Below the pieces are notes generated by a model. It saw nothing but the letters and a program-made list of their open reading frames with translations. It searched no databases and was not told the origin of the DNA. Below are positions 6,427-20,716 of a stretch of DNA of 64,000 nt, one piece after another. How positions within the stretch are numbered: the stretch's first letter is position 1; each line of letters opens with the position of its first letter. Both the position numbers and the translations under genes were made by a program. Where the stretch lies: assembly GCA_965221125.1 (NCBI GenBank), contig CBDCRW010000005.1, forward strand, positions 672,001 to 736,000, in the 5' to 3' direction. Origin of the DNA: Alphaproteobacteria bacterium (lineage in GTDB: Bacteria; Pseudomonadota; Alphaproteobacteria; UBA828).

Positions 6427-7879
6427 GGTTGTGTCCCCAGACGTGGTGTAGGAGCTCCCGCTACCCCCGGTAGCTGTGGGTAACCGGCTTGGCGCCGCGA
6501 CCGCCCTCGAGTCTGGTGGCGCCAAGCCGGTTATCCACAGCGGGGTGGCCATCGCGGTTCCGGTTTAGGGTTTGGGTGAATCCGAATCGACCCGAGCCTA
6601 AGGAGAACCACGATGACCGATGACAAGCTTACCCTGCGGACGCTGTTGGAGAAGAGCTCTGACGCCGATCTGCTGCGTGAGATGATCGCCTTCTCTGCGC
6701 AGCGCCTTATGGAGCTGGAAGTCGAGGGCCTGACCGGCGCCGAGCATGGCGCGCGGACGCCGGAGCGGATCAACCAGCGCAACGGCTACCGCGATCGGCC
6801 TTGGGAGACCCGGGCCGGCACGGTCGACCTGAAGATTCCGAAGCTCAGGAAGGGGAGCTACTTCCCCGGCTTCCTGGAGCCCCGACGGACGGCGGAGAAG
6901 GCGCTCACGGCGGTGATCCAGGAGGCCTACATCCAGGGGGTATCGACCCGCTCGGTCGACGAACTGGTTCAGGCCATGGGCATGAGCGGGATATCGAAGA
7001 GCCAGGTCTCGCGCCTTTGCGGGGAGATAGACGACAAGATCCGCAGCTTCCTCGACCGCCCGCTCGAAGGCGACTGGCCCTATCTCTGGCTGGATGCGAC
7101 TTACGTGAAGGTGCGCGAGGCCGGGCGCATCGTCCCGGTCGCGGTCACCGTGGCCGTCGCGGTCAACGACCAGGGCCGGCGCGAGATCCTCGGCATGGCG
7201 ATCGGCGCCTCCGAGGCCGAGACCTTCTGGACCGAGTTCCTGCGCTCGCTGACCAGGCGCGGCCTGCGCGGCGTGCAGCTGGTGATCTCCGACGACCACA
7301 AGGGCCTGAAGGCCGCCACCACCCGGATCCTCGGCGCCACCTGGCAGAGATGCCGCGTCCACTTCATGCGCAACCTGCTGGCCCATGCCGGCAAGCAGGG
7401 CCGGCGCGTCGTCTCCGCCTTCGTCGCCACCGCCTTCGCCCAGGACGATGCCGAGGCCGCTGCCGCCCAGTGGCGCCTGATCGCCGACCAGCTCAGGCCC
7501 AAGGCCTCCAAGCTGGCGGCCCTCATGGACGAGGCCCAGCACGACGTCCTCGCCTACATGAGCTTCCCCAAGGAGCACCGGGTCAAGCTTCACTCGACCA
7601 ACCCGCTCGAACGCGTCAACGGCGAGATCAAGCGACGCACCAACGTCGTCGGCATCTTCCCCAACGAGGACGCCATCACCCGCCTCGTCGGCGCCGTGCT
7701 GCTCGAGCAGAACGACGAATGGACCGTCGGAAGGAGGTACATGACGCTGGAATCGATCGCTCCCCTGAGCGACAATCCCACGATCAAGCTGTCCGCTGTG
7801 GCAGCCTGAATAACCCGGCCCTACCCGCCGGATGCCGCGTAAAGCGCGACGCTCTTACACCACTCCTCGGGACACGATC
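6427..7879 (+). mobile_element. Complete IS256-family insertion sequence with 8-bp target duplication TAGGTTAT
   Basis: Left IR GGTTGTGTCCCCAGACGTGGTGTAG; right IR (rc) GATCGTGTCCCGAGGAGTGGTGTAA. TAGGTTAT at 6419-6426 and 7880-7887. Confidence 0.93.
6613..7809 (+). CDS. IS256-family (Mutator-type) DDE transposase
   Basis: [56 protein letters not shown]; RBS AGGAG. Confidence 0.96.
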
Positions 7880-8115: not shown

Positions 8116-9276
8116 ATGACTTCGGAACCGAGCATGCCGGCGGGCTCTTCGATGCCGCCCGTTTTCGTCACGGGTTCGGCCGGGCATGTCGGTGCCAACC
8201 TCGTGCGCCGGCTGCTCGACGAGGGCGTGCGGGTCCGGGTGTTGTTGAGACACGAGGACAACAACGAGGGCCTGGACGGTCTCGAGGTCGAACGCGTGTT
8301 CGGCGACATTCGGAATTTTGACGACACCAGGCGAGCGCTCGCGGGCTGTCAGGGTGTCTATCACTGCGCGGCCATGATCTCGACCATCGAAGGCAACCGC
8401 GCCCATCGCCGCGACATGTTCGAGTGCAACGTTCTCGGCACCCGCAACGTGCTGCGGGCGGCGCAGGAGGCGGAGGCCGGCCGGGTGGTCGTTACCGGCT
8501 CGTTCAGCGCGGTGGGATACGACCTGGACGATCCCTCCGCTCCCAGCGACGAGACGATGCCGTTCTACCCCATGGAGCGCACGATGCCCTACGAGCGCAG
8601 CAAGTCGCTCGTCGAGCAGGAGTGCTGGCGCGCGGCGGCAACGGGACAGGACGTGGTGGTCGCGACCTGCTGCGCGGTGGTCGGCGGCGCCGATTTCCTC
8701 CCCTCGCGCCTGGGGCGAACGCTCTGCGACTACACGAACGGCAAGCTCCGCGCCTATATCGATGGCGGTTTCGAGTTCGTCGCGGCCCGCGACATCGTCG
8801 AGGGGCACGTGTTGTGCATGCGCCACGGTCGCTCGGGCGAAAAGTACATCTTCAGCACCGAGTACAAGACCATTTCCGATATCCTGGATCTCTACGAGGA
8901 GGTCTCGGGCGTCCCGCGGCCGCGCCGGCGATTTCCGACCCGCCTCATGCTCGTCTTTGCCGAGATCGCGAGCTTCTATCTCAGCCGCTTTCACCCGGAC
9001 TTCCCCCAGCGCTTCACTCCCGGCGCCATACGCCTGTTGCGAAAGTGCCGCCACGCCGACGTCTCCAAGGCGAAACGGGAGCTCGGCTATCGGCCGACCG
9101 GCCTCCGCGCCGCGGTTCAGGAGGCCTACGCGTTTCACTACGGCCGCAACGCGATCGCGAACCCGCAGGCGAAGCGCCCGCGCGAGGACACCGCGAATCA
9201 CCGCGTCGCGCGAGAAGAGGACGATCCCGTGCCGGAGCGAGGCATGCGGACGATGGCGGGCGGGGGCGCGCCATGA
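8116..9276 (+). CDS. NAD(P)-dependent epimerase/3-beta-HSD-type SDR; SdmB-like sterol C-4 decarboxylase/reductase
   Basis: VTGSAGHVG Rossmann motif and catalytic YERSK. Coupled by ATGA to a Rieske oxygenase in a sterol cluster. Confidence 0.78.
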   Translation: MTSEPSMPAGSSMPPVFVTGSAGHVGANLVRRLLDEGVRVRVLLRHEDNNEGLDGLEVERVFGDIRNFDDTRRALAGCQGVYHCAAMISTIEGNRAHRRDMFECNVLGTRNVLRAAQEAEAGRVVVTGSFSAVGYDLDDPSAPSDETMPFYPMERTMPYERSKSLVEQECWRAAATGQDVVVATCCAVVGGADFLPSRLGRTLCDYTNGKLRAYIDGGFEFVAARDIVEGHVLCMRHGRSGEKYIFSTEYKTISDILDLYEEVSGVPRPRRRFPTRLMLVFAEIASFYLSRFHPDFPQRFTPGAIRLLRKCRHADVSKAKRELGYRPTGLRAAVQEAYAFHYGRNAIANPQAKRPREDTANHRVAREEDDPVPERGMRTMAGGGAP

Positions 9277-10370
9277 GGGCGGCGCCCGACGCGCCGCCCG
9301 GCTTCGAGGATGCCGGCAACCTGCGCCAGCAGGCCCGCGCCGCGGGCATGGACCCGAATTACTGGTATCCGGTCGAGGAAGTGAGGCGGATCAAGCCGGA
9401 GACGGTGATCGAGGTCGTCTTCTGGAAGCGTTCCATCGCGCTCTTCCGGGGAAAGGACGGCAATTTCCAGGCGGTCGAGGACCGCTGCGCGCATCGCCAG
9501 CTCAAGCTCTCCATCGGCGACGTGCAGGGTTGCCGGCTCGTCTGCGCCTACCATGGCTGGGAGTACGGCGGCGACGGCCGCCCCGCCGGGGTGCCCTACG
9601 ACGACCAGGGGCGGAGCTTCCCCAACCTTGCGCTCAGGACCTACCCGGTGAAGGTCCGCTACGGCCTGGTCTGGCTCTTCCCGGGAGATCCGGAGCAGGC
9701 GGAGGTGCGCCGGATCCCCGACATTCCCGAGCTCGAGGGACCCGGCCGCTGGGCCTGCGTGCCGCTCTGCTTCACCTGGTCGGCCCACCACTCGATGGTG
9801 ATCGACAATGTGAGCGACTTCACCCACGCCCATCTGCACCGCCGCTACCGGCCCTTCGACGGCGCCACGCTCACCCGCTGCGAGACCGTCGGCGACGACG
9901 TGCACCTCGCCTACGACACGAGCGTCGGGCGCGGGCGCATCTCCGGACTCTTCGTCGATCACGACCGGATCGACACCAATTGCATGGAGCTTTGCTACGA
10001 GTACCCCTACCAGTGGTCGAACACCGATGACGCGATCAAGCACTGGCTCTTCGTGCTGCCGGTCGACGAGCGCACGACCCGCGTGTTCTTCCTGTTCTAC
10101 TTCAAGTCGCTGAAGATTCCCCTGCTGCCGCTGCGCATTCCCCGCCCCGCCATGAACGCGGTCTTGAGGATCTCCAACCGCCTGCTCATCGCCCCTCTGC
10201 TCTCCCAGGACCAGTTCGCGCTGGAGGCGGAGCAGCAGGGATACGAGGAGCACTGGGACGCCCGCCCCGTCGAGTTCAACCCGGTGGTCAGGGCCTTTCA
10301 GAAGGTGACCGTGCGCAAGTGGCGGGAGCATCTCGCGCGCGAAGCGGAGAACGGCGATGCCGCCGCCTGA
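9273..10370 (+). CDS. Rieske non-heme iron oxygenase; SdmA-like sterol C-4 methyl oxidase
   Basis: Rieske motif CAH...CAYHGW and mononuclear Fe site DNVSDFTHAHLH. Real start is the ATG at 9273, inside ORF 8424..10370. Confidence 0.8.
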   Translation: MRAAPDAPPGFEDAGNLRQQARAAGMDPNYWYPVEEVRRIKPETVIEVVFWKRSIALFRGKDGNFQAVEDRCAHRQLKLSIGDVQGCRLVCAYHGWEYGGDGRPAGVPYDDQGRSFPNLALRTYPVKVRYGLVWLFPGDPEQAEVRRIPDIPELEGPGRWACVPLCFTWSAHHSMVIDNVSDFTHAHLHRRYRPFDGATLTRCETVGDDVHLAYDTSVGRGRISGLFVDHDRIDTNCMELCYEYPYQWSNTDDAIKHWLFVLPVDERTTRVFFLFYFKSLKIPLLPLRIPRPAMNAVLRISNRLLIAPLLSQDQFALEAEQQGYEEHWDARPVEFNPVVRAFQKVTVRKWREHLAREAENGDAAA

Positions 10371-11457
10371 AGCGCTCGACCTCTCGTCGGCGCTCTCCTG
10401 CGGGACCCTGCTCGAGGCGGCGGCGATGGTGCTGGGGTTCATCGCCCTCCTCTTCGTGATGTCGCTGGTCCTGCCGGGTCGTCGCGTCACGGGCCCCGAT
10501 GCCGACGGAAACGAGCGCGTCTACAAGCTCAACGGCCTCTCCCTCTATCTGATCGTCATGATTGCGGCGTGTGGCGCGCAGGCCTCCGGCATTCTCTCCC
10601 TTTCGGTGCTGCATACCCACATTCTCGCCCTCTTCGTCGTGGCGAACGGATTCGCGTTCGCGCTCTCCGGCTGGCTCTACCTGCGCGGCGTGCGAAAGCC
10701 TCATGCATCGCCCCGGTCCTGGCGGGACTTCTTCTACGGCGTGGACGCCGCTCCGGCCTGGTTGGGGCTGGATCTGAAGCTCTTCAGCTATTGCCCCTCG
10801 CTCATCGGCCTCGCCCTCTTCAACGCATCGTTTGCCGCCGTGCAGTACGAGACCTACGGCGAGCTGACCCTGGGGATGATGCTCTACCAAGTCTTCACCT
10901 TCCTCTACGTGCTCAACTACTTCCAGTTCGAGCAGGGGATGATCCACACCTGGGACATCCTTCGCGAGCGCTTCGGGTGGATGCTGGTCTGGGGCGACTA
11001 CGTGCTGGTGCCCTTCTTCTACTGTCTCCCCGGCTGGTGGCTGGTTCACGCACCGGAGCCGCTGTCTCCGGCCGCCGCCGGCGGGATCGTCGTGCTCTTC
11101 GTTTTCGGCTTCTGGCTCTTTCGCGGGTCGAACCAGCAAAAGCACCGCTTCAAGCGCAATCCCGACGCCAGGATCTGGGGCAAGCCGGCCCGGACCCTGG
11201 ACGGGCGCCTGCTGGTCTCCGGATTCTGGGGCATCGGACGGCATCTCAACTATACCGGCGAGATCTGCGTCTATTTCTCGTTCGCCCTCACCACCGGGTT
11301 TAGCTCCTGGGCTCCCTTCCTGTTGCCGGTATGGCTGGCGGGCCTGCTGTGGCACCGCTCGGGACGCGACGAGCGCCGCTGCCGCGCCAAGTACGGCGCG
11401 CTGTGGGAGCGCTATACCCAGCGGGCGCGCTTCGCGATGCTGCCGTTCATCCATTGA
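10357..11457 (+). CDS. ERG4/ERG24-family sterol reductase (probably Delta14-reductase)
   Basis: Polytopic membrane protein with DILRERFGWMLVWGD, NQQKHRFK, LLVSGFWGIGRHLNYTGE and RDERRCRAKYGALWERY signatures. Confidence 0.9.
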   Translation: MPPPEALDLSSALSCGTLLEAAAMVLGFIALLFVMSLVLPGRRVTGPDADGNERVYKLNGLSLYLIVMIAACGAQASGILSLSVLHTHILALFVVANGFAFALSGWLYLRGVRKPHASPRSWRDFFYGVDAAPAWLGLDLKLFSYCPSLIGLALFNASFAAVQYETYGELTLGMMLYQVFTFLYVLNYFQFEQGMIHTWDILRERFGWMLVWGDYVLVPFFYCLPGWWLVHAPEPLSPAAAGGIVVLFVFGFWLFRGSNQQKHRFKRNPDARIWGKPARTLDGRLLVSGFWGIGRHLNYTGEICVYFSFALTTGFSSWAPFLLPVWLAGLLWHRSGRDERRCRAKYGALWERYTQRARFAMLPFIH

Positions 11458-11465
11458 GGCCGGCG

Positions 11466-12875
11466 ATGGCAAACCGAATTCACAGTCTGGATGCGCCGCG
11501 CTCGGCTCGGTTCCGGCCGCGCTCGGAGAACGCCGCTCCCATGCTCGCGGGCGGGTGGCCGTTGCTCGGCCATCTGCCGGAATTCCAGAGGGATCCGGTC
11601 GCCATGTTGAGCCGCGGCTGGCGCGAGCATGGCGCGCTCTTCCGCTTCCGGCTCGGGACCCGCGCTTTCGTTCTCTTCGCCGGGCCCGAAGCCCACGACT
11701 TCTATTTCAGGGCACCCGAGGAACAGCTGAACGCCAAGGCCGTCTACCGCTTCACCGTGCCCATCTTCGGACGCGGCGTGGCCTACGACACCTCCCCGGA
11801 GATCATGTCGGAGCAGCTGGGCTTTCTCTTTCCGGCGCTCCGCGAGGCGGCCATGCGCAGGTTCGCCCTCGTCATGTTCGACGAGGCGCGGCAGTTCGCC
11901 GACTCCCTGGGCAAGGAAGGGGAAATCGATCTGCCGCAGGCGATGAACGAGCTCACGGTCAAGATCGCCGGCCGCTGCCTGATCGGACAGGAAGTCCGCG
12001 ATCGGGTGGACGCCGGCTTTGCCGAGATCTACCGCGACCTGCAGAAGGGCATTAACACCCTGGGATTTTTCCTCCCTAGGCTTCCCGTCGCAGCGCATCG
12101 AAAGCGCGACAAGGCCCGGCGACGGGTGGCGGAGCTCTTCGGCGGGATCATGGCCGCGCGCCGGGATGCCGGGGCCAGCCCCGACGACTTCATGCAGACG
12201 CTCATGAACGCCCGCTACAAGAGCGGCCGCGCCCTCAGCGACGACGAGATCACGGGGATCCTGCTGACGGTGCTCTTCGCAGGCCAGCACACCAGCGCGG
12301 TGCTCGCGACCTGGATCGGCCTGGAGCTGCTCAGGGCGCCGGCGTACCTGGCACGGGCGAGAGACGAGGTGCGGGAGGTTTACCGCGAAGCAGGGTCCGT
12401 GAGCATCGACAGCCTCCAGCGCCAGCCGGCCCTGGAGAACGCCGTCCGCGAATGCGAGCGGCTGCACCCGCCGCTGATATTGCTGATCCGGAAGGTGCTC
12501 GAGCCCCTGCGCTACGGAGACCGCGTCGTGCCCGCCGGCACCATGGCGATGGTGTCGCCGGCGGTCTCTCACCGCCTGCCCCACATCTTCGAGGACCCGG
12601 AGCGCTTCTTTCCCGACCGCTTCGCCGCTCCGGCGTGCGAGGACAAGCAGCACCACTACGCCCTGATCGGCTTCGGCGGCGGCAAGCACGCGTGCATGGG
12701 CAAGAACTTCGCGTACATGCAGCTCAAGGCGATCTGGACCGTTCTGCTCGATCGCTTCGATTTCTCTCTCAGCGGCGCGTTTCCCCGTCCGAACTACGGC
12801 AGCTGGGTGACCGGGCCTGAGAGACCGTGCCGCGTCCGCTACCGTCGCCGCGCGCAGCCGAGCGCATTCTCATGA
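11466..12875 (+). CDS. cyp51: Cytochrome P450 CYP51, sterol 14-alpha-demethylase
   Basis: CYP51-type B'/BC loop YRFTVPIFGRGVAYD, I-helix LFAGQHTS, ExxR ECERLHPP, heme motif FGGGKHACMG. Start at 11466 or 11541. Confidence 0.92.
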   Translation: MANRIHSLDAPRSARFRPRSENAAPMLAGGWPLLGHLPEFQRDPVAMLSRGWREHGALFRFRLGTRAFVLFAGPEAHDFYFRAPEEQLNAKAVYRFTVPIFGRGVAYDTSPEIMSEQLGFLFPALREAAMRRFALVMFDEARQFADSLGKEGEIDLPQAMNELTVKIAGRCLIGQEVRDRVDAGFAEIYRDLQKGINTLGFFLPRLPVAAHRKRDKARRRVAELFGGIMAARRDAGASPDDFMQTLMNARYKSGRALSDDEITGILLTVLFAGQHTSAVLATWIGLELLRAPAYLARARDEVREVYREAGSVSIDSLQRQPALENAVRECERLHPPLILLIRKVLEPLRYGDRVVPAGTMAMVSPAVSHRLPHIFEDPERFFPDRFAAPACEDKQHHYALIGFGGGKHACMGKNFAYMQLKAIWTVLLDRFDFSLSGAFPRPNYGSWVTGPERPCRVRYRRRAQPSAFS

Positions 12876-15800
12876 GCGCCGCCGCGTCGCGGCGTTACGA
12901 CGTGGCCATCGTCGGCGCGGGGCCGGTGGGGAGCCTGTGCGCGCTCGCTCACGCGCGGAAGGGCGCCCGGGTGGCCCTGCTGGAAGCGAATCCCAGGGCG
13001 TCCGAGCGCCTGGCGGGCGAATGGCTGCATCCGCCCGGCGTCCAGATACTGCGGCACTTCGGGATCGGGCCGGACACCCTGCCCCGCAGCACCGCGGGCA
13101 GGGGCTTCGTCGTGTTTCCCGATGACGGCTCGAAGCCGATCGTGCTTCCCTACATGAACGGCTCGCGGGGTCTGGCCTGCGACCATGCGGTGCTCGTCTC
13201 GAAGCTGCGGGACGCCATCGGGAACGAGCCGGACGTGGATTTCTTCGCCCCCGCGCGGGTCGGTGAAGTCGAAGACGGCCGGCTGGCCTTCACCAGCAAC
13301 GGCACGGTTCACACCGTCCGCGCCGCACGGATTATCGGCGCCGACGGCCGGGCCTCGATCGTGCGCCAGTCGCTCGGCCTGTCGACGGACCCGATGCTCT
13401 GCTCGCGCATGCTGGGGGTCACGGTGAGCGGTGTGAGCCTGCCCTTCGAAGGTCATGGGCATGTGCTGCTCGGCGGCCCAGGGCCGATACTCGCCTACGG
13501 CGTGGCAAACGATTGCGTCCGGATCATCGCCGATGTCCCGCTGGACCGCTGGTCACGCCAGGACCGGGTCGGCTTCCTGACGGAATCCTATGCCGCCCTG
13601 CTGCCGGAGACTCTCAGGCCGGCGTTCGTCGAGGCGCTGCGAGCGGGGCAATTCGACGTTGCAGCCAATCAGCTGCGGCCGCGCGTCACTTACGGCACCC
13701 CGCTTCGCGTGTTGATCGGCGACGCGGCCGGGCACTACCACCCCATGACGGCGGTCGGCATGACCCTCGGATTCGGCGATGCGCTCGCCCTCGCCGAGGG
13801 CGGGAGCTTTCGCGACTTCGCCGCCAGGCGCTTCCGGGCGACCCATGTGCCGGAGTTGCTCGCCATGGGGCTCTACGAGGTCTTCGCCGATCGTCGGGCC
13901 GAGGCGGTGGCGATGAAACACGCGGTCTACCGGGGGCTGCGAACGAGCTCCGATTACCGGGAGCGGACCTCGCGGATACTTGCCTGCGAAGATCGATCCG
14001 CGCTCGGGATGGGTCTCGCGTTTTTCGGAACGGCAATCCGGGCGGCGGCCGTGGAGATTCCGCTCTCCCTCCGCCAGTTCGCTCCGCGCCGGGGTCTGAG
14101 GATCTTCGGTGCGCTCGTCGTTCGTCTCTGGTGGCTCCTGCGTTGGGGTCTGCAGCTGCGCCGGTCAAGACGCCGGGGCGGGCGGAACGACGAGCGGGCC
14201 CTGGACAGCCTGGCCCGAGCACTCCTGCACTCCATGCCGTCGGGGCTCGACGCGGCCGGATCCGGCCGGCCGAAGGACTCCGAGGCGCCCGATGCCGGTC
14301 CGGCACTGGCGAGCGCGACGGCGCAGCTCCTCAGCCTCCAGGGCGAGGACGGCGGCTGGGAAGGCGAGATGGTCTGGTGCCCCATGCTCACCGCGCAATA
14401 CGTGCTGCTGCACCACATCATCGGCCGGCCGCTCGAGCCCGGCCGGCGCCGGCGCGTGCTGCGCTCCTTCGAACGGACCCGTCTCGAAGCAGGCTCCTGG
14501 GGCCTGCACGAGCACGCGTCGCCCCACCTCTTCGTCACCGCCATGGTCTACGTCGCGGCGAGGCTGCTCGGGGTCGAGCGTGACGATCCCCTTGTCGAGC
14601 CGGCCCGGCGCTTCATACAGGCCGAGGGGATCGTGGCCATTCCGAGCTGGGGAAAGTTCTGGCTGGCGCTGCTCAACCTCTACGACTGGCGCGGGGTCAA
14701 CGCCGTCCTGCCGGAGCTGTGGAGCCTGCCGCGGCGCATACCCTTGCATCCCTCCAACTGGTACTGCCACACGCGGCTCATCTACATGGCGATGGCGGCG
14801 GTTTACGCGCACCGCTTCCAGGCACCCGTCACGCCCCTGATCGCCGCGCTGCGGGAGGAGCTGTTCCCGCAAGGATTTGCGGAGGTAGATTTCTCCGCCG
14901 CCCGCAGTTGCCTGCGGGAGGCCGACCTCTACGCGCGGCCGAGCGTGTGGCTCAAGGCTGGATACAGGATTGCGCGCGTGTTCGATCGGCTCCACGGCAA
15001 GCGCCTGCGTGCCCGATGCACGGAGGCGATCGTCCGGCAGATCAGATGGGAGCTGCAGACCACCAGCCATACGAGCATCTCTCCGGTGAGCGGCCTTCTC
15101 AACATGCTTGCCCTGTGGCTGCGCGATCCGGACGACGCCGATCTGCACCAGGCGCTCGCGAAGCTGGACGGCTGGTTCTGGGAGGACGAGGAAGAGGGTG
15201 CGCGCGTCGTCGGCGCGAGAAGCGCCTCGTGGGACAGCGGCTTCGCGTTGCAGGCGCTGGCGGCGGCGCCCGCGTTCGACGGGGTAGAGGACGCGCTGCA
15301 GCGCGGCGCCGACTTCCTGCTCAGGCAACAGATTGCCGCCAGCTTCGACGGGTTTCGCGAGGCCTATCGAACCGACCCCAGGGGCGGCTGGTGCTTTGCC
15401 GGGGGATGGCATGGCTGGCCGGTGAGCGACTGCACTGCGGAGGCGGTGCTCGGACTTCACGCTGCCGGTCGCGGCGCTCTGCACGCGAGCGCGTTGCGCG
15501 ATGCGGTCGGGTTCATGCTGCGCTGCCAGAACCGCGATGGCGGATTCGGCAGCTACGAGGCGCGACGCGCGGCTTTCGGTCTGGAGTGGATGAATCCGGC
15601 CGAGATGTTCGGCGATTCGATGACCGAGCAATCCTATGTCGAGTGCACCGTGTCCTGCCTCGCGGCGCTCGCCGCCTGCAGGGAGGACGTTCCGCAAATC
15701 GTGGATGGAGCCGTGACGGGCGCGATCGCCCGGGCCGATGCCTGGCTTCGCCGAACCCAGGCAAGCGACGGGTCGTGGCGCGGCGTGTGGGGGGTTCAGT

Positions 15801-16282
15801 TCATTTACGGAACCCTCTTCGGAATCAGGGGTCTTCTGTCGGCCGGAGCCGGCCCCGACGATCCGGCGCTTCGCTCGGCCTGCCGCTGGCTGCTGGAGCG
15901 CCAGCGGGAAGACGGCGGATGGGGCGAGCACCACAGCGGCTGCCTGACCGGCCGATACGTGCCGCACGAGGAAAGCCAGGTCGTCCAGACCGCGTGGGCC
16001 TTGATCGCACTCCTCGAGGCGAACGAATCGAACTGGACTGCGATTTCGCGGGGCGCCCGCTTCCTGCTCGACGCGCAGGACGCCGACGGGACGTGGCCCA
16101 GGCAGGACATGGCTGGCGTGTTCTTCCGAACGGCGCTCCTGGATTACGTGCTGTACCGACGGTATTTCCCGCTGCACGCGCTCGCTCTCTACGAGCGCCG
16201 CCGCCGCGAGCGGCTGGGTCTCGCCGCCGCCCCGCGCGCCGCCGACGCGCCTGCGGCTCCGTCCGAGGCGGCTGCGGCCTGA
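12872..16282 (+). CDS. Squalene epoxidase - 2,3-oxidosqualene cyclase fusion protein (1136 aa)
   Basis: N-terminal FAD monooxygenase with GAGPVG, RLAGEWLHPPG, IGADG, LIGDAAGHYHPMTAVGMT. C-terminal cyclase with GWPVSDCTAE (15428-15442), several QW repeats (QGEDGGW, QNRDGGF, QASDGSW, QREDGGW, QDADGTW) and WYCHTR. No stop between the domains. Confidence 0.92.
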   Translation: MSAAASRRYDVAIVGAGPVGSLCALAHARKGARVALLEANPRASERLAGEWLHPPGVQILRHFGIGPDTLPRSTAGRGFVVFPDDGSKPIVLPYMNGSRGLACDHAVLVSKLRDAIGNEPDVDFFAPARVGEVEDGRLAFTSNGTVHTVRAARIIGADGRASIVRQSLGLSTDPMLCSRMLGVTVSGVSLPFEGHGHVLLGGPGPILAYGVANDCVRIIADVPLDRWSRQDRVGFLTESYAALLPETLRPAFVEALRAGQFDVAANQLRPRVTYGTPLRVLIGDAAGHYHPMTAVGMTLGFGDALALAEGGSFRDFAARRFRATHVPELLAMGLYEVFADRRAEAVAMKHAVYRGLRTSSDYRERTSRILACEDRSALGMGLAFFGTAIRAAAVEIPLSLRQFAPRRGLRIFGALVVRLWWLLRWGLQLRRSRRRGGRNDERALDSLARALLHSMPSGLDAAGSGRPKDSEAPDAGPALASATAQLLSLQGEDGGWEGEMVWCPMLTAQYVLLHHIIGRPLEPGRRRRVLRSFERTRLEAGSWGLHEHASPHLFVTAMVYVAARLLGVERDDPLVEPARRFIQAEGIVAIPSWGKFWLALLNLYDWRGVNAVLPELWSLPRRIPLHPSNWYCHTRLIYMAMAAVYAHRFQAPVTPLIAALREELFPQGFAEVDFSAARSCLREADLYARPSVWLKAGYRIARVFDRLHGKRLRARCTEAIVRQIRWELQTTSHTSISPVSGLLNMLALWLRDPDDADLHQALAKLDGWFWEDEEEGARVVGARSASWDSGFALQALAAAPAFDGVEDALQRGADFLLRQQIAASFDGFREAYRTDPRGGWCFAGGWHGWPVSDCTAEAVLGLHAAGRGALHASALRDAVGFMLRCQNRDGGFGSYEARRAAFGLEWMNPAEMFGDSMTEQSYVECTVSCLAALAACREDVPQIVDGAVTGAIARADAWLRRTQASDGSWRGVWGVQFIYGTLFGIRGLLSAGAGPDDPALRSACRWLLERQREDGGWGEHHSGCLTGRYVPHEESQVVQTAWALIALLEANESNWTAISRGARFLLDAQDADGTWPRQDMAGVFFRTALLDYVLYRRYFPLHALALYERRRRERLGLAAAPRAADAPAAPSEAAAA

Positions 16283-16348: not shown

Positions 16349-17380
16349 TCAGTCGTGCGGGGGGCCGGGCTTGCGGGCCAGGAAAAAGAACATCGGCGTG
16401 AAGACGCCGGACCTGCCGCCGTCCACCAGCGCGTCCGCCGCCGCGTTCAGGAGCGTGCTGACCGCGCGGGAGCCCTCGGGAAAGAGCCGAAGCCGTTCGC
16501 CCACCCGCAAGGTCAGGTTGGTCAGCGCGCGGCCGACGGGCGTGCGCGGAAGACTCGAAAGACTGAGGTCACGACCCTGCAAGGCACGATACCAGGGCAT
16601 CTCCGGGTCCGCTTCGGGCGCGCGGTCGCGCGCGTCCAGGAGCTCGAATCCCGCCGTCCGCAACGCGGCGGAAACCTGCGACGTGGAAGCGATGTCCGGC
16701 AGCGCATCGCCGACCATGATGTCGTTCCTGATTCGCCGATGCTCCGCGTTGGCTGAATCGAATTTCTCGGTGAGGCACCAGTCGTAGCCCGCGAAGCAGG
16801 CTCCGGGACGAAGCACACGCAGGATCTCCCGGAACGCCGCTGTCTTGTCGGGCGCGTGGGGCATGGACTCGATCGCAATGGCAGCATCGTAGCGGTCGTC
16901 TTCCTCGGGAATCTGCATGTAGTCGCCGTGAATGAAGCGGCATAACGACCGGACATCCCGGGTGTGAAGTTTGGCGCGCTCGATCTGGTAGGCGTTGTTG
17001 TTGATTCCGACAAAGCTGGCCCCGGAATGGCGGGCCAGATTGCCCGTCGGCCCGCCGACACCGCAGCCGACATCGAGCACGTGCATACCCGGCTTCAGGG
17101 ACAGCCTTTCGGCCAGAAAATGCTGGTGCCGGAGCAGCGACGCCTTGAAGCTCTCGCCCCGCCTTCGGGGAGCGAAGTGAAAGGACTGGCCCCAACCGAA
17201 CTCATAGAAATCGGTCACCAGATCGTAGTAGCGATTCACGAACGAGCGATAATGCTCCTTCCTGCGCTCCAGGCCGGCATCGTAGATTTCGGTGTATCCG
17301 TCGACCGTGGACCTTACTTCGTCCGGGGCGAGATTCGCGAGGGTGCGCGCTTTCGATCGTGCGCCGGAGGTGCGATTCAT
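16349..17380 (-). CDS. smt: SAM-dependent sterol C-24 methyltransferase (ERG6/SMT family)
   Basis: Region I YYDLVTDFYEFGWGQSFHFAPR, SAM motif LDVGCGVGGP, IESMPHAP, RVLRPG..F..YDW, C-terminal GVFTPMFFFLARKP. Confidence 0.93.
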   Translation of the reverse strand: MNRTSGARSKARTLANLAPDEVRSTVDGYTEIYDAGLERRKEHYRSFVNRYYDLVTDFYEFGWGQSFHFAPRRRGESFKASLLRHQHFLAERLSLKPGMHVLDVGCGVGGPTGNLARHSGASFVGINNNAYQIERAKLHTRDVRSLCRFIHGDYMQIPEEDDRYDAAIAIESMPHAPDKTAAFREILRVLRPGACFAGYDWCLTEKFDSANAEHRRIRNDIMVGDALPDIASTSQVSAALRTAGFELLDARDRAPEADPEMPWYRALQGRDLSLSSLPRTPVGRALTNLTLRVGERLRLFPEGSRAVSTLLNAAADALVDGGRSGVFTPMFFFLARKPGPPHD

Positions 17381-17545
17381 CCGTGCATCTTGCCAGAGCC
17401 GCACGTCGTCCCCAAGACCGGCGTGTTGCGGGTTCCAGCGCTTCGCTTCATGTCACCGATACGGACCGCGTCCGGGGTGCCGCCCTCTCCGCGGGGTACA
17501 ATGCGGCAAGCCTCAGCACCGGCGTATCCGAGAGGAGCGAATCGC

Positions 17546-18280
17546 ATGATCGAAAGGCAAGCGGACCGAGGCCCATGCGAATCCGGCACTCACCGGACCT
17601 GGCTGGCAATCCCGCCGGTGGTGTTCGCCGGGTCGATCATCGCGATTCTGACAGCGGCCGGCATCGGTGCGCGCTACGGCGTTCGTGGCGATTTCGACGT
17701 CATTCATGCACTCCTGATGCTCTTCTTTTCGATCAACCTGTTGATATGCCACTGGGAGGTGTGCCTCTTCTTCAGGCGGGATTATGTCGAGAAGCGTGCC
17801 GAATACTGGCGTGAGCGCCGAGACGAAACAGGCCGGACATCGGCCGTCGAATTCCTCACCGGAAGGGTTCCGTTGACGCGAATATTGTCGTCGACGGTAT
17901 GGGCCGACGTCTGGGCTACCTATTCCCAGTTCGACGGTTCCTACGCCGACCGGCGCACGTACGGCTACAACGTGGATATCGCCAACGGCTTCGTAACGCC
18001 GGTGCCGACGCTGATCCTCTTCGCCGCCTTCACCGTCGATTTCCTGCCCGCCCTCGTCGCCGGCATCGTCGGGGCGATGCTGTTCTGGCAGCTGACCTAC
18101 GCGACCTCGGTCTATTGGGTCAGCTTTTTCGTGGCCAAGCGGCAAAGACGCATCGGCCGCAAGGATATGTACATCTACATCTGGGGACTGAATTGCCCGT
18201 GGGTGCTGTTCGCCCTGCTGGGCCTCTACGTCTCCATTCGCCTGATTCTTGACGGCAACTACAGCGTTCTCGGCCATTGA
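17546..18280 (+). CDS. EBP/EXPERA-like membrane protein, candidate sterol Delta8-Delta7 isomerase
   Basis: About 5 TM segments. VWATYSQFDGSY resembles EBP LWKEYAKGDSRY and YIWGLNCPWVLF resembles FVFMNALWLVLP. RBS GAGGAG; divergent from smt. Confidence 0.6.
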   Translation: MIERQADRGPCESGTHRTWLAIPPVVFAGSIIAILTAAGIGARYGVRGDFDVIHALLMLFFSINLLICHWEVCLFFRRDYVEKRAEYWRERRDETGRTSAVEFLTGRVPLTRILSSTVWADVWATYSQFDGSYADRRTYGYNVDIANGFVTPVPTLILFAAFTVDFLPALVAGIVGAMLFWQLTYATSVYWVSFFVAKRQRRIGRKDMYIYIWGLNCPWVLFALLGLYVSIRLILDGNYSVLGH

Positions 18281-18430
18281 TCGCGGCTTCCCCCGGAACA
18301 ACGCCGATCGAGGGTAATCCTTCGGTCATAGAGTGATGGCATGTTGGGCGTTGACATCAACGACCGCGCCTGGAGACGCGCTCGGTAGGAATTGCTGGTA
18401 ACGAATTTCGCCATGCGCTAGCGTGAGTGC

Positions 18431-20716
18431 ATGGCGATTCGCGACGCGTCTGCCGCGGCACACCTCTCGCTGGTCGAGGGGTCTGACGGTCCATGGTCTT
18501 TTCCTCCTGATAATCCGTCCTCCGAAGAGCCGGACTGGCGATCCCTGTCCGAGCGGGCGCACGCCCGTGCGGAGAGCGAGGGGGCGCGGGCAGACGCGGC
18601 TGAAGCGCGCATCCAGGAACTGCTCGGCGATATCCGTCGGCTCCGCGCTTCTTTGCGCAAAACGGGAGCAGCCGGAAGTACGGGGGAGCCGCTGCCGAGG
18701 GGTGCCCGTGGAGCGCACAAAGCGCCGCGAAGATTGCGACGGAACGACACCATCGGCTCGCTGCATGTGGAGAACGCCGAACTGCGCGAGGAGGCCACAA
18801 CGCTGCGCAAGGCGGCGGGTGCGGCACAGACGTCGCTCTCCAGGAAAGACGCCCGGCTGCTCAAGGCCCGGGAACGTTCGCAGGCCCAAAGGAGCACGAT
18901 CGAGGAGCTGCGCCGGCAGGTCCGTTCCCTGGAAAGGCAGGTCGCCCGGCAGAGCCGCGACCTGGAGGAGGCGGAAAGCCGCAGGCAGACTATCCGTGAT
19001 CTCTCCCGCGAGAACGCGGAACTCCGTGGAGCACTCAGGGATTGGCGCGACCAGGAGGCCACCATCGAATGGTTCGACGGCCGCGTCAGCGAGCTGGAAT
19101 GTGCCCTGGACGAGGCCGCAGACGAGAGGCGGTGGATGGAGGCCGATCTTGCCGATCGCCCTCTGTTGCCCGTGGCCTTCGAACGACTGCGCACCCAGGA
19201 GAAGACGATCCAATCGCTCACCGAGAAGATCCAGTCCCTCTCCGAGAAAAACGAGCGGTTGCGGGCCCGGATCACGGACCTGGAGGCGACGGTTGCCAGG
19301 CACCGTGCGAGCAGGGCCGTGCTGTCCAAGGCACTGTTCGGCAGCAAGAGCGAGCAGCAGGAGAAGCCCAGCACGGGGCGCAAGCGCGGCCAGCAGCGCG
19401 GCGCTCCCGGCCACGGCCGTACCCCGCGGCCCGGGCTCGAGGAGCGCACCGACAAGCGCAACCCGCCCAAGGACGCGCGCGCGTGCTCCTGTTGCGGCAA
19501 GCCCTATGTCGCCAACGGCGAGCACGTCTCGACCATCATCGAGATCGAGGTCAAGGCCCACAAACGCAGGATCGTCCGCCCCCGCTGGCGCCGGGGTTGC
19601 GACTGCCCGTCCTCGCCCCTGGAAGTGACGGCGCCCCCGCCGCTGCGCCTGTTCCCCAGGACACCCTACGGAACCAGCGTGTGGGCGAGCTTCCTCTACG
19701 AGCGCTACGCCTCTCTGCGGCCCCTCAGCCAGGTCTCCGCGTGGCTGTCCGGCCTCGGTCTGCCGATCGCTGCCGGCACCCTCGCCGGCAGCGTGGAGCG
19801 CTTCATTCCTGTGTTCGAGCCCGTGGCGGACGCGATCCTCGCGCACCAGAACCAACAGGCGGTCCGTCACGGCGACGAGACCGGCTGGCGTATCCAGTCG
19901 CTGCGCGAGATCGGCCGCTCCAACCGCGCGTGGCTGTGGAACTCGGTCAGCGAGGATGCGGTCTACTTCCACTGCGACCCCTCGCGCTCGGCCGAGGCCG
20001 CGAAGACGTTGTTCGGCGATACCGCCGTCGTCGTGTTCGTGGTCTGCGACCGCCTCTCCAGCTACAAGAAGATGGCGCGCGACCTCGACGGCAAGGTGAT
20101 CCTCTGCTTCTGCTGGGTCCATCAACGGCGGGACTTCATCCAATGCGCGGCCAGCCACAATCGGCTGACGGACTGGTGCCAGAGTTGGATCGAGCGCATC
20201 GCCTCGATCTACAGCCTGAACAAGGCGCGGCTGCGGCATTACGACCCCGCTCTGGAGCGCCAGACGCCACAGTTCGACGCCGCACAGAGAGAGTTGGAGA
20301 AGGCCGTCGACAAGCTGTTCGCGGACGCAAAAGCGGAACTGGCCGGCCTGCCGGCCGGCTCGCGCGAGGCCAAGCCGCTGCGCTCGCTGCTCAACCACCG
20401 CGAGGGGTTGTGCGTCTTCGTCGACAACCCGCAGGTGCCCATGGACAATAACGCTGCCGAGCGGGCGTTCAGGAAAGCGGTCATAGGACGACGCCTCAGC
20501 TTCGGATCCGACAGCGAGGACGGCGCGAAGTTCACGGCAATCATGTACTCCGTCGTCGGCACCCTCGCCATGAACGGCATCGATGTCCGGCGCTGGCTGG
20601 AGGCATGGCTGAAGACCTGCGCGAAGAATGGCGGCAAACCGCCGGACGACTTGTCGCCCTGGCTGCCGTGGTCGATGAGCGAGAAGCGAAGGCGCAAGTT
20701 CACGGCGCCGGGATGA
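18431..20716 (+). CDS. IS66-family TnpC-like transposase with long N-terminal coiled coil
   Basis: ALFGSKSEQ, GAPGHGR, CSCCG zinc finger, HGDETGW, VCDRLSSY, CWVHQRRDF, DNNAAERAFR. Confidence 0.9.
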   Translation: MAIRDASAAAHLSLVEGSDGPWSFPPDNPSSEEPDWRSLSERAHARAESEGARADAAEARIQELLGDIRRLRASLRKTGAAGSTGEPLPRGARGAHKAPRRLRRNDTIGSLHVENAELREEATTLRKAAGAAQTSLSRKDARLLKARERSQAQRSTIEELRRQVRSLERQVARQSRDLEEAESRRQTIRDLSRENAELRGALRDWRDQEATIEWFDGRVSELECALDEAADERRWMEADLADRPLLPVAFERLRTQEKTIQSLTEKIQSLSEKNERLRARITDLEATVARHRASRAVLSKALFGSKSEQQEKPSTGRKRGQQRGAPGHGRTPRPGLEERTDKRNPPKDARACSCCGKPYVANGEHVSTIIEIEVKAHKRRIVRPRWRRGCDCPSSPLEVTAPPPLRLFPRTPYGTSVWASFLYERYASLRPLSQVSAWLSGLGLPIAAGTLAGSVERFIPVFEPVADAILAHQNQQAVRHGDETGWRIQSLREIGRSNRAWLWNSVSEDAVYFHCDPSRSAEAAKTLFGDTAVVVFVVCDRLSSYKKMARDLDGKVILCFCWVHQRRDFIQCAASHNRLTDWCQSWIERIASIYSLNKARLRHYDPALERQTPQFDAAQRELEKAVDKLFADAKAELAGLPAGSREAKPLRSLLNHREGLCVFVDNPQVPMDNNAAERAFRKAVIGRRLSFGSDSEDGAKFTAIMYSVVGTLAMNGIDVRRWLEAWLKTCAKNGGKPPDDLSPWLPWSMSEKRRRKFTAPG

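Follow-up and report, generated by a model that had tools for sequence, protein, structure and literature searches.

Locus and reading frame of the fused gene

A 64,000-nucleotide stretch of DNA from an alphaproteobacterium (GTDB lineage UBA828; GenBank assembly GCA_965221125.1, contig CBDCRW010000005.1, positions 672,001 to 736,000 of the forward strand), hereafter the window, encodes a squalene epoxidase (SE) and an oxidosqualene cyclase (OSC) in one polypeptide of 1136 amino acids (aa). The parts of this gene, in window coordinates, and the evidence that defines them are as follows.

12872..16282, forward strand: fused SE-OSC gene, 1136 aa (open reading frame, Pfam and NCBIfam, alignment to the human structures 1W6K and 6C6N, structural model, fold matches)
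12872..14206, forward strand: squalene epoxidase part, residues 1–445 (Pfam, 6C6N alignment, model, junction profile)
14207..14281, forward strand: connector, approximately residues 446–470 (family alignment, predicted local distance difference test (pLDDT) scores, start of unfused OSCs)
14282..16282, forward strand: oxidosqualene cyclase part, approximately residues 471–1115 (1W6K alignment, residue invariance)

The initial annotation of this DNA had described a single uninterrupted frame that joins both enzymes, and the translation agrees: 1136 codons free of internal stops end at a TGA (16280–16282), and the Pfam domains of both enzymes lie within them. The candidate starts are GTG 12827 and ATG 12872, the latter overlapping the stop of the upstream cytochrome P450 gene (ATGA). 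Because relatives of the fused protein align from residue 1, ATG 12872 is the likely start. The segments IFGALVVRLWWLLRWGLQL and SGLDAAGSGRPKDSEAPD are present at residues 411–429 and 457–474, respectively, and the motif DCTAE occupies residues 853–857 (VSDCTAE, 851–857).

The region has a G+C content of 70 %, at which long spurious frames are common, and an assembly or sequencing artefact, in which a missed stop or frameshift at the junction merges two neighbouring genes, would produce the same picture. Against this stands the conservation of the frame in independent genomes. Among the related loci (the 80 best of 402 stretches that encode a relative, fetched from species-representative genomes), 79 maintain one frame across both domains, open from stop to stop over at least 1132 aa, and several of the records are single-contig chromosomes. 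The SE domain and both cyclase domains are also present together in all 120 protein clusters listed (90 % clusters; the top 120 of 1220 hits obtained from 8000 candidates that were scored), whose members have 996–1181 aa and are 69–94 % identical. Finally, the junction is bridged without gaps by Logan contigs from three other studies (run X6, 13855–14365; X4, 13977–14290; X8, 14039–14290), evidence that consists of contigs and not of raw reads. No insertion or deletion relative to the window is listed for these contigs between 13600 and 14500, which includes the interval singled out initially for inspection (14100–14340); for the rest of the gene, the list contains just two indels that compensate each other, at 14590/14594, both in the same X8 contig. 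As far as contigs and independent genomes can show, a missed stop or frameshift at the junction is excluded, and the probability of an artefact is negligible. The low depth of Logan contigs over parts of the gene is not a finding in itself, because many related copies fragment the contigs of sponge metagenomes.

The exception among the 80 loci is L001, the closest species-level relative (93 % identity), which has one in-frame TAG at codon 650 (L001:8001-11351), where the window has a glutamine codon; this stop lies within the cyclase and not at the junction. The same TAG is found in genome G030 (G030:C71:36752-40159). It could mark a pseudogene or be a sequencing error in a short-read metagenome-assembled genome (MAG). 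Beside the fusion, only the genes for CYP51 and a sterol methyltransferase (SMT) were found at the L001 locus.

Catalytic residues of the two halves

The N-terminal half matches the Pfam families FAD_binding_3 (residues 9–308; 73.8 bits, cut-off 22) and SE (PF08491, squalene epoxidases of the class A flavoprotein monooxygenases; residues 154–393; 5.6e-24, 85.1 bits, cut-off 20.1). It can be aligned with the human enzyme SQLE (6C6N; 6.5e-24). It carries GxGxxG at G15/G17/G20, which we take to be the dinucleotide-binding motif, and what are presumably further epoxidase motifs, DG at 158–159 (D158-G159) and GD at 283–284 (G283-D284). In an alignment of 56 sequences, comprising the query, 49 sponge-type relatives, and six fusions at 45–52 % overall identity, the residues G15, G17, G20, F79, G159, and D284 are invariant.

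The C-terminal half matches both alpha/alpha-barrel domains of the cyclases, SQHop_cyclase_N (480–773; 9.6e-53) and SQHop_cyclase_C (784–1108; 5.4e-54). It exceeds the cut-off of the NCBIfam model for squalene/oxidosqualene cyclases (TIGR01787; 502.5 bits vs. 322.7) and scores far lower with the hopene-cyclase model (273 bits). Its alignment with human lanosterol synthase (LSS; 1W6K, 1.9e-127) runs from one end to the other. Hopene cyclases have a DxDD motif in place of VxDCTAE. The VSDCTAE of the fusion and the alignment of D853/C854/C925 with human D455/C456/C533 bear out the initial assignment of the cyclase to the OSC type. Residues correspond as follows (human numbering counted along the 1W6K alignment, residue identities rechecked).

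D853/C854 to D455/C456, C925 to C533, H633 to H232, Y895 to Y503
W787 to W387, F842 to F444, W973 to W581
V851 to V453, H847 to C449, A782 to T381

We take human D455 to be the catalytic acid in VxDCTAE, with C456 and C533 as its partners; H232 is presumably the deprotonating histidine, and Y503, W387, F444, and W581 the aromatic residues of the cavity. In the fusion, H633, A782, W787, H847, V851, D853, C854, C925, and W973 are invariant across the 56 sequences; Y895 and F842 are nearly so.

The initial annotation had raised the possibility that one of the two domains is inactive. If one domain were a relic, the protein would be only a cyclase or only an epoxidase, with the other half retained as a scaffold. 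Such a fate has a possible parallel in a related family of fusions between SE and squalene synthase, which keeps a cyclase fragment between its two domains, and the stop inside the cyclase of L001 points the same way. The residues argue otherwise: the catalytic and cofactor residues mapped in both halves are invariant, and identity per 20-residue window rises to 0.92–0.95 at the motifs of both. Moreover, the sole other cyclase match in the genome is hopene-cyclase-like; the genome was not searched for a second epoxidase. Both halves thus appear catalytically intact, and a relic domain is very improbable.

Junction and predicted structure

The junction between the halves varies little in length. 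Across 80 relatives, the gap fraction of residues 370–490 rounds to 0.00 in each 20-residue window; the alignment contains eight insertion columns, contributed by few rows, and a one-residue deletion in L073. The conserved motifs of the region are LACEDxS, AWRRARD, ALAVRLWWLLRG, LARAFLxSMPS, and SPDAGPAL.

A phmmer alignment to human LSS reached back to query residue 424, and residues from 424 onward were considered as a eukaryote-type N-terminus belonging to the cyclase itself. This assignment was rejected with a profile built from residues 400–478, which matched the C-termini of stand-alone SEs instead, weakly but in consistent positions (P0188 at 401–435, independent E-value (iE) 0.012; P0222, iE 0.072). 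The same profile matched the C-terminus of the SE in a distant fusion (P0136; iE 8e-4). OSC representatives of eukaryote length went unmatched in their N-terminal extension (iE 5.5 or worse). Judged by these profile matches, residues from about 401 to 445 are the epoxidase's own C-terminal helices. Since unfused bacterial OSCs start at approximately query residue 470–480, the true connector comprises residues from about 446 to 470; it is short and of near-constant length across the family.

An AlphaFold2 model of the full-length protein, built on the 56-sequence alignment, reached a mean pLDDT of 84.4. Its predicted template modelling score (pTM) of 0.85 suggests a defined arrangement of the two domains, although pTM is an indirect gauge of domain packing. 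Outside the termini, pLDDT falls below 50 only at residues 459–468. Helices are modelled at 377–401, 405–435, and 439–450. The flexible linker postulated in the initial annotation is therefore supported in part: disorder is indeed modelled at 459–468, but the junction is of near-constant length, and much of the segment (approximately 401–445) would belong to the C-terminal helices of the epoxidase.

Each half adopts the fold of its human counterpart in the model, the cyclase with a target-normalised template modelling (TM) score of 0.82–0.83 to 1w6j/1w6k and the epoxidase with 0.81–0.83 to 6c6r/6c6n. No solved chain covering both halves was present among the fold matches, of which the best had a query-length-normalised TM score of 0.54. 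A transmembrane helix in the junction was considered and rejected, as the family-mean Kyte-Doolittle hydropathy (19-residue window) does not exceed 1.38 anywhere in the protein. The lack of a clear membrane-spanning segment would fit two monotopic membrane enzymes.

Distribution and origin of the fusion

The fused gene is carried by sponge-associated bacteria. A search of 185,579 species-representative genomes yielded 509 candidate stretches, and a relative is encoded in 402 of them; among these, the 80 best are 64–93 % identical over nearly the full length of the query. Their labels comprise at least eight phyla (Alpha- and Gammaproteobacteria, Nitrospirota, Binatota, Actinomycetota, Acidobacteriota, Thermodesulfobacteriota, Nitrospinota, and Rhodothermota), and many of the record titles name sponges or sponge-symbiont taxa. 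Nine of the 20 sequencing runs that hold this stretch are labelled as sponge metagenomes; one of these, X4, has 92 contigs at ≥99 % likeness to it. The fusion is genuine, but it is not new: its description dates from 2020, and many sponge-dwelling bacteria carry it. The rarity implied by the initial annotation is contradicted by the literature, by the listed protein clusters (the best 120 of 1220 hits), which are all fused, and by the 402 stretches with a relative.

A gene tree of the relatives (FastTree, not bootstrapped) groups the rows largely by phylum, with eight label changes where the minimum is seven, and the branches that join the phyla are only 0.01–0.06 substitutions per site long. 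Within the order, represented by 49 genomes, the full-length gene is present in 8 of the 21 genomes of the organism's own genus and in none of the 28 others, which have just a hopene-cyclase-like match of approximately 30 % identity. The high identity across at least eight phyla, the patchiness within the genus, the transposases on both sides of the cluster, and the grouping of the tree by phylum speak for a transfer of the cassette between phyla, and the pattern as a whole indicates that a few such transfers were probably followed by descent and loss. Nearly all genomes of the order have a hopene-cyclase-like match.

When clustered at 50 %, the sponge-type family collapses to one representative (P0012). 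Fused forms also occur at 46–53 % identity (P0122–P0127) and at 39 % (P0135 and P0136). In a tree of 62 cyclase domains (FastTree), all 18 fused forms fall into one well-supported clade of 22 rows, which also contains four apparently unfused representatives; the other 40 of the 44 unfused OSCs fall outside. This topology is compatible with a single origin of the fusion, and the four unfused rows could be fragments produced by gene calling.

P0135 and P0136, for which the identity drops to 35 % in the cyclase, have only a partial Pfam match to the N-domain of the cyclase and, in P0135, also to the C-domain. They may represent fusions to a cyclase of another specificity. The two pair on long branches in the cyclase tree, and their placement is unsure.

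Operon and genomic neighbourhood

The neighbours of the fused gene that bear on its function are the following.

8116..9276, forward strand: sdmB-like NAD(P)-dependent oxidoreductase (Epimerase/3Beta_HSD), first gene of the operon; upstream of the fusion in 64/80 loci
9273..10370, forward strand: sdmA-like Rieske oxygenase (C-4 demethylation); start overlaps the sdmB stop (ATGA); 66/80 loci
10357..11457, forward strand: ERG4/ERG24-family sterol C-14 reductase (7.5e-69); 66/80 loci
11466..12875, forward strand: cytochrome P450, CYP51-like by context; start at ATG 11466 or TTG 11454; 67/80 loci
16349..17404, reverse strand: sterol C-24 methyltransferase (Sterol_MT_C and methyltransferase domain), convergent with the fused gene; in the flank of 54/80 loci
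17546..18280, forward strand: 244-aa multi-pass membrane protein with an EBP-like predicted fold, adjoining the SMT gene; 26/80 loci
6613..7809, forward strand: Mutator-family transposase (7.3e-122), upstream flank
18431..20716, forward strand: IS66-family transposase (2.2e-53), downstream flank

Judging from the gene overlaps, which include that of the P450 stop with the start of the fusion, the SE-OSC gene is the last of a translationally coupled operon sdmB-sdmA-erg24-cyp51-SE/OSC. The order oxidoreductase, Rieske protein, sterol reductase, P450, SE/OSC is common to 64–67 of the 80 related loci. The P450 is named CYP51 by context and not by a CYP51-specific model, following Kelly et al. (2022) and Mohanty et al. 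(2020).

The 244-aa membrane protein matched no Pfam family; an atlas lead pointed to EBP. Its model (pLDDT 81.7) has human EBP as the best match in the Protein Data Bank (8w0r_A, TM 0.61/0.69), followed by 6oht (0.50/0.59), and all others are below 0.27. On the strength of the predicted fold, 17546–18280 is a candidate for the missing sterol delta8-delta7 isomerase of the bacterial pathway. The G+C content is 0.60–0.63 at 17000–18500, compared with 0.68–0.72 in the sterol operon; in it lie the EBP-like gene and the spacer that precedes the IS66 element. Both transposases look like local insertions and not like a shared mobile element, since the 80 related loci contain no equivalent of either.

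Elsewhere in the genome, two SQS_PSY genes lie side by side, arranged like hpnC/hpnD (G000:C4:797170-798797), and there is a separate hopene-cyclase-like gene (G000:C3:299308-301170; 440 bits to SQHop_cyclase_C). With this gene complement, hopanoids are probably produced alongside sterols.

In 10 of the 80 loci (L010, L027, L031, L037, L042, L047, L049, L056, L065, and L068), the fused gene occurs without the other genes of the cluster within flanks of approximately 8 kb. All three copies from Acidimicrobiia are among them.

Proposed function and the question of channelling

Taken together, the residues, the gene order, and the likeness to MsbE, a fused SE/OSC of a sponge symbiont (see below), make it very likely that the protein is a member of an MsbE-type family of fused SE/OSCs that converts squalene via oxidosqualene to what is most likely lanosterol, encoded by the last cistron of a sterol operon. 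2,3-Oxidosqualene would arise from squalene through epoxidation by the N-terminal flavin monooxygenase. The C-terminal half, a class II cyclase, would then protonate the epoxide via D853 and cyclise oxidosqualene, most likely to lanosterol. Together with the SMT and the EBP-like protein, the operon would lead from squalene to a sterol that is demethylated at C-4 and C-14 and alkylated at C-24, and the two adjacent SQS_PSY genes elsewhere in the genome would supply the squalene. The fusion would hold two monotopic membrane enzymes at a fixed ratio of 1:1, so that oxidosqualene could pass over without leaving the membrane surface. The cassette itself has passed between phyla in the microbiomes of sponges. 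The architecture, the intact motifs, the conservation, the synteny, and the distribution are seen directly in the data; from them we infer both activities, the product, and the fixed 1:1 arrangement with a handover of oxidosqualene.

Several observations weigh against this interpretation. In the epoxidase, the sole departure from the human enzyme is F79 at the position of Y195 of SQLE. The same position is occupied by F in 34 of 38 cyclase-less representatives that contain an SE domain (the other four have gaps or L) and in all eight distant fusions, and F79 therefore looks like the bacterial norm and not like a defect. In the cyclase, two of the three classical positions of product specificity are atypical (A782 at human 381 and H847 at human 449), and the most specific and best-scoring NCBIfam model, TIGR03463 (osq_cycl), gives 752.5 bits, which is under its cut-off of 851 bits. 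The cluster revealed no redox partner that could serve the epoxidase, the P450, or the Rieske protein. The contigs from RNA libraries that fall on the gene are three from one library with a likeness of 90–95 %; at this likeness, they come from relatives and provide no evidence for transcription of this gene. In the literature searched, supplements excepted, no biochemical or expression study of any fused member was found; both activities and the product accordingly rest on homology.

The atypical cyclase positions leave some doubt about the product, which could also be cycloartenol, parkeol, or another tetracyclic or pentacyclic triterpenol. Both A782 and H847 are non-canonical for a lanosterol synthase, and H at human position 449 is the residue of the cycloartenol type (Wei et al. 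2016, PMC4919349); the TIGR03463 score below the cut-off would also agree with another product. The third position points to lanosterol: in all bacteria tested by Wei et al. (2016, PMC4919349), V at human position 453 goes with lanosterol and I453 with cycloartenol, and V851 is invariant in the family, which makes lanosterol the most likely product. The same annotation was reached for MsbE (Mohanty et al. 2020, PMC7074536), and the downstream genes suit a lanosterol route. A product other than lanosterol is thus improbable.

The fusion could be of advantage in more than one way. In the most elaborate case, it would be a rigid two-enzyme machine, in which the C-terminal helices of the SE and the connector of constant length dock on the cyclase, so that the substrate entrances of both enzymes share a patch of membrane and oxidosqualene is never released. 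Such a machine would be the first natural squalene-to-lanosterol channel and could explain why the fused form, and not the separate genes, spread in sponge microbiomes. It is rather unlikely; true substrate channelling in the SE-OSC fusion, in whatever form, is slightly less so but still doubtful, and any interface between the domains, or a tunnel, stays putative.

There is nearly an even chance that co-inheritance and stoichiometry alone account for the fusion. Both halves would then work without a channel or a defined interface, and the advantage would lie in the transfer of two steps with each gene and in a guaranteed 1:1 expression at the membrane. The transfer of the cassette between phyla and its patchiness within the genus agree with this explanation, as do the disordered loop modelled at residues 459–468, the four apparently unfused representatives inside the fused clade, and the observation that other bacteria manage well with SE and Osc as separate proteins (Wei et al. 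2016, PMC4919349). The near-constant length of the junction and its conserved motifs over at least eight phyla speak against it, as does the whole-chain pTM, although neither proves an interface.

Comparison with known systems

As a discovery, the fusion carries little weight, because both the fused gene and the cluster have already been published and are abundant. What the present analysis adds is the short connector of constant length, a confident full-length model, the invariant active sites, the patchy distribution within the genus, and the transposases in the flanks, which together form a starting point for a structural and biochemical study of channelling. A single gene that leads from squalene to lanosterol would also be a candidate tool for engineering. 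In addition, the cassette bears on the debate about the share of bacterial symbionts in the sponge sterols that are used as biomarkers (Brown et al. 2023; Kelly et al. 2022).

The closest described counterpart is MsbE, the fused SE/OSC encoded in the msb locus of a gammaproteobacterium that lives in symbiosis with the sponge Melophlus sarasinorum (Mohanty et al. 2020, Mar Drugs 18:124, PMC7074536), which was annotated from sequence only. Like the gene in the window, msbE has an oxidoreductase (msbA), a Rieske protein (msbB), a sterol reductase (msbC), and a 14-demethylase (msbD) as neighbours, and in both genomes squalene synthase is encoded away from the cluster (PMC7074536). The hosts differ, as the closest relatives of the present genome are labelled Alphaproteobacteria. 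Gammaproteobacterial loci of the same gene order are 68–72 % identical; MsbE itself was compared by description only.

The architecture has appeared in two further studies of sponge symbionts. Brown, Olagunju, Giner & Welander (2023, Nat Commun 14:1859, PMC10070321) refer to "fused SMO/OSC homologs" in metagenomes and MAGs, which have the same architecture and belong to sterol clusters of sponge symbionts with sdmA/sdmB and SMTs. In the parts covered, these fused forms come up solely in the methods, in connection with the trimming of N-termini for the OSC tree, and were not themselves studied. Kelly et al. (2022, Microbiome 10:164, PMC9531527) found ERG24-CYP51-LSS clusters in 115 of 537 MAGs from Ircinia sponges, representing 10 phyla, and inferred horizontal gene transfer and purifying selection (omega 0.17 for the "LSS" gene). 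These clusters share with the window the gene order, a flanking "DFR" (sdmB-like) gene, and an SMT gene on the opposite strand. The gene is named LSS only, but its alignment of 3765 nucleotides has the length of the fused form; the words fused, fusion, epoxidase, monooxygenase, SQLE, and ERG1 are absent from the main text. Among other work, the fusion is not treated in the parts covered of PMC12324236, on triterpenoid cyclases, and PMC10161426, on yeast ERG1, and Hoshino & Gaucher (2021) mention neither fused forms nor sponges.

Another type of fusion, represented by P0196, P0206, P0215, and P0223 (1082–1194 aa), has an N-terminal SE and a C-terminal squalene synthase (SQS; PF00494) in all four proteins scanned. 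The middle region of P0206 and P0215 keeps a fragment of the cyclase C-domain of approximately 75–80 residues, and local BLAST suggests about 11 more representatives. The SE domain of these proteins is 41–47 % identical to that of the window, and their partner catalyses the step before the epoxidase and not, as in the present fusion, the step after it.

Eukaryotes and the well-studied sterol bacteria keep the two enzymes apart, as the initial annotation had correctly stated. In humans, LSS (1W6K) and SQLE (6C6N) are separate proteins of the endoplasmic reticulum; the fold of each half of the fusion matches its counterpart, and the LSS positions D455, C456, C533, H232, Y503, W387, and W581 are conserved in the fusion, whereas Y195 of SQLE is replaced by F. 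Cultured sterol-producing bacteria likewise possess SE and Osc as two polypeptides (Wei, Yin & Welander 2016, PMC4919349), which share with the fusion the same two reactions, the catalytic residues, and the rule that links V453 to lanosterol.

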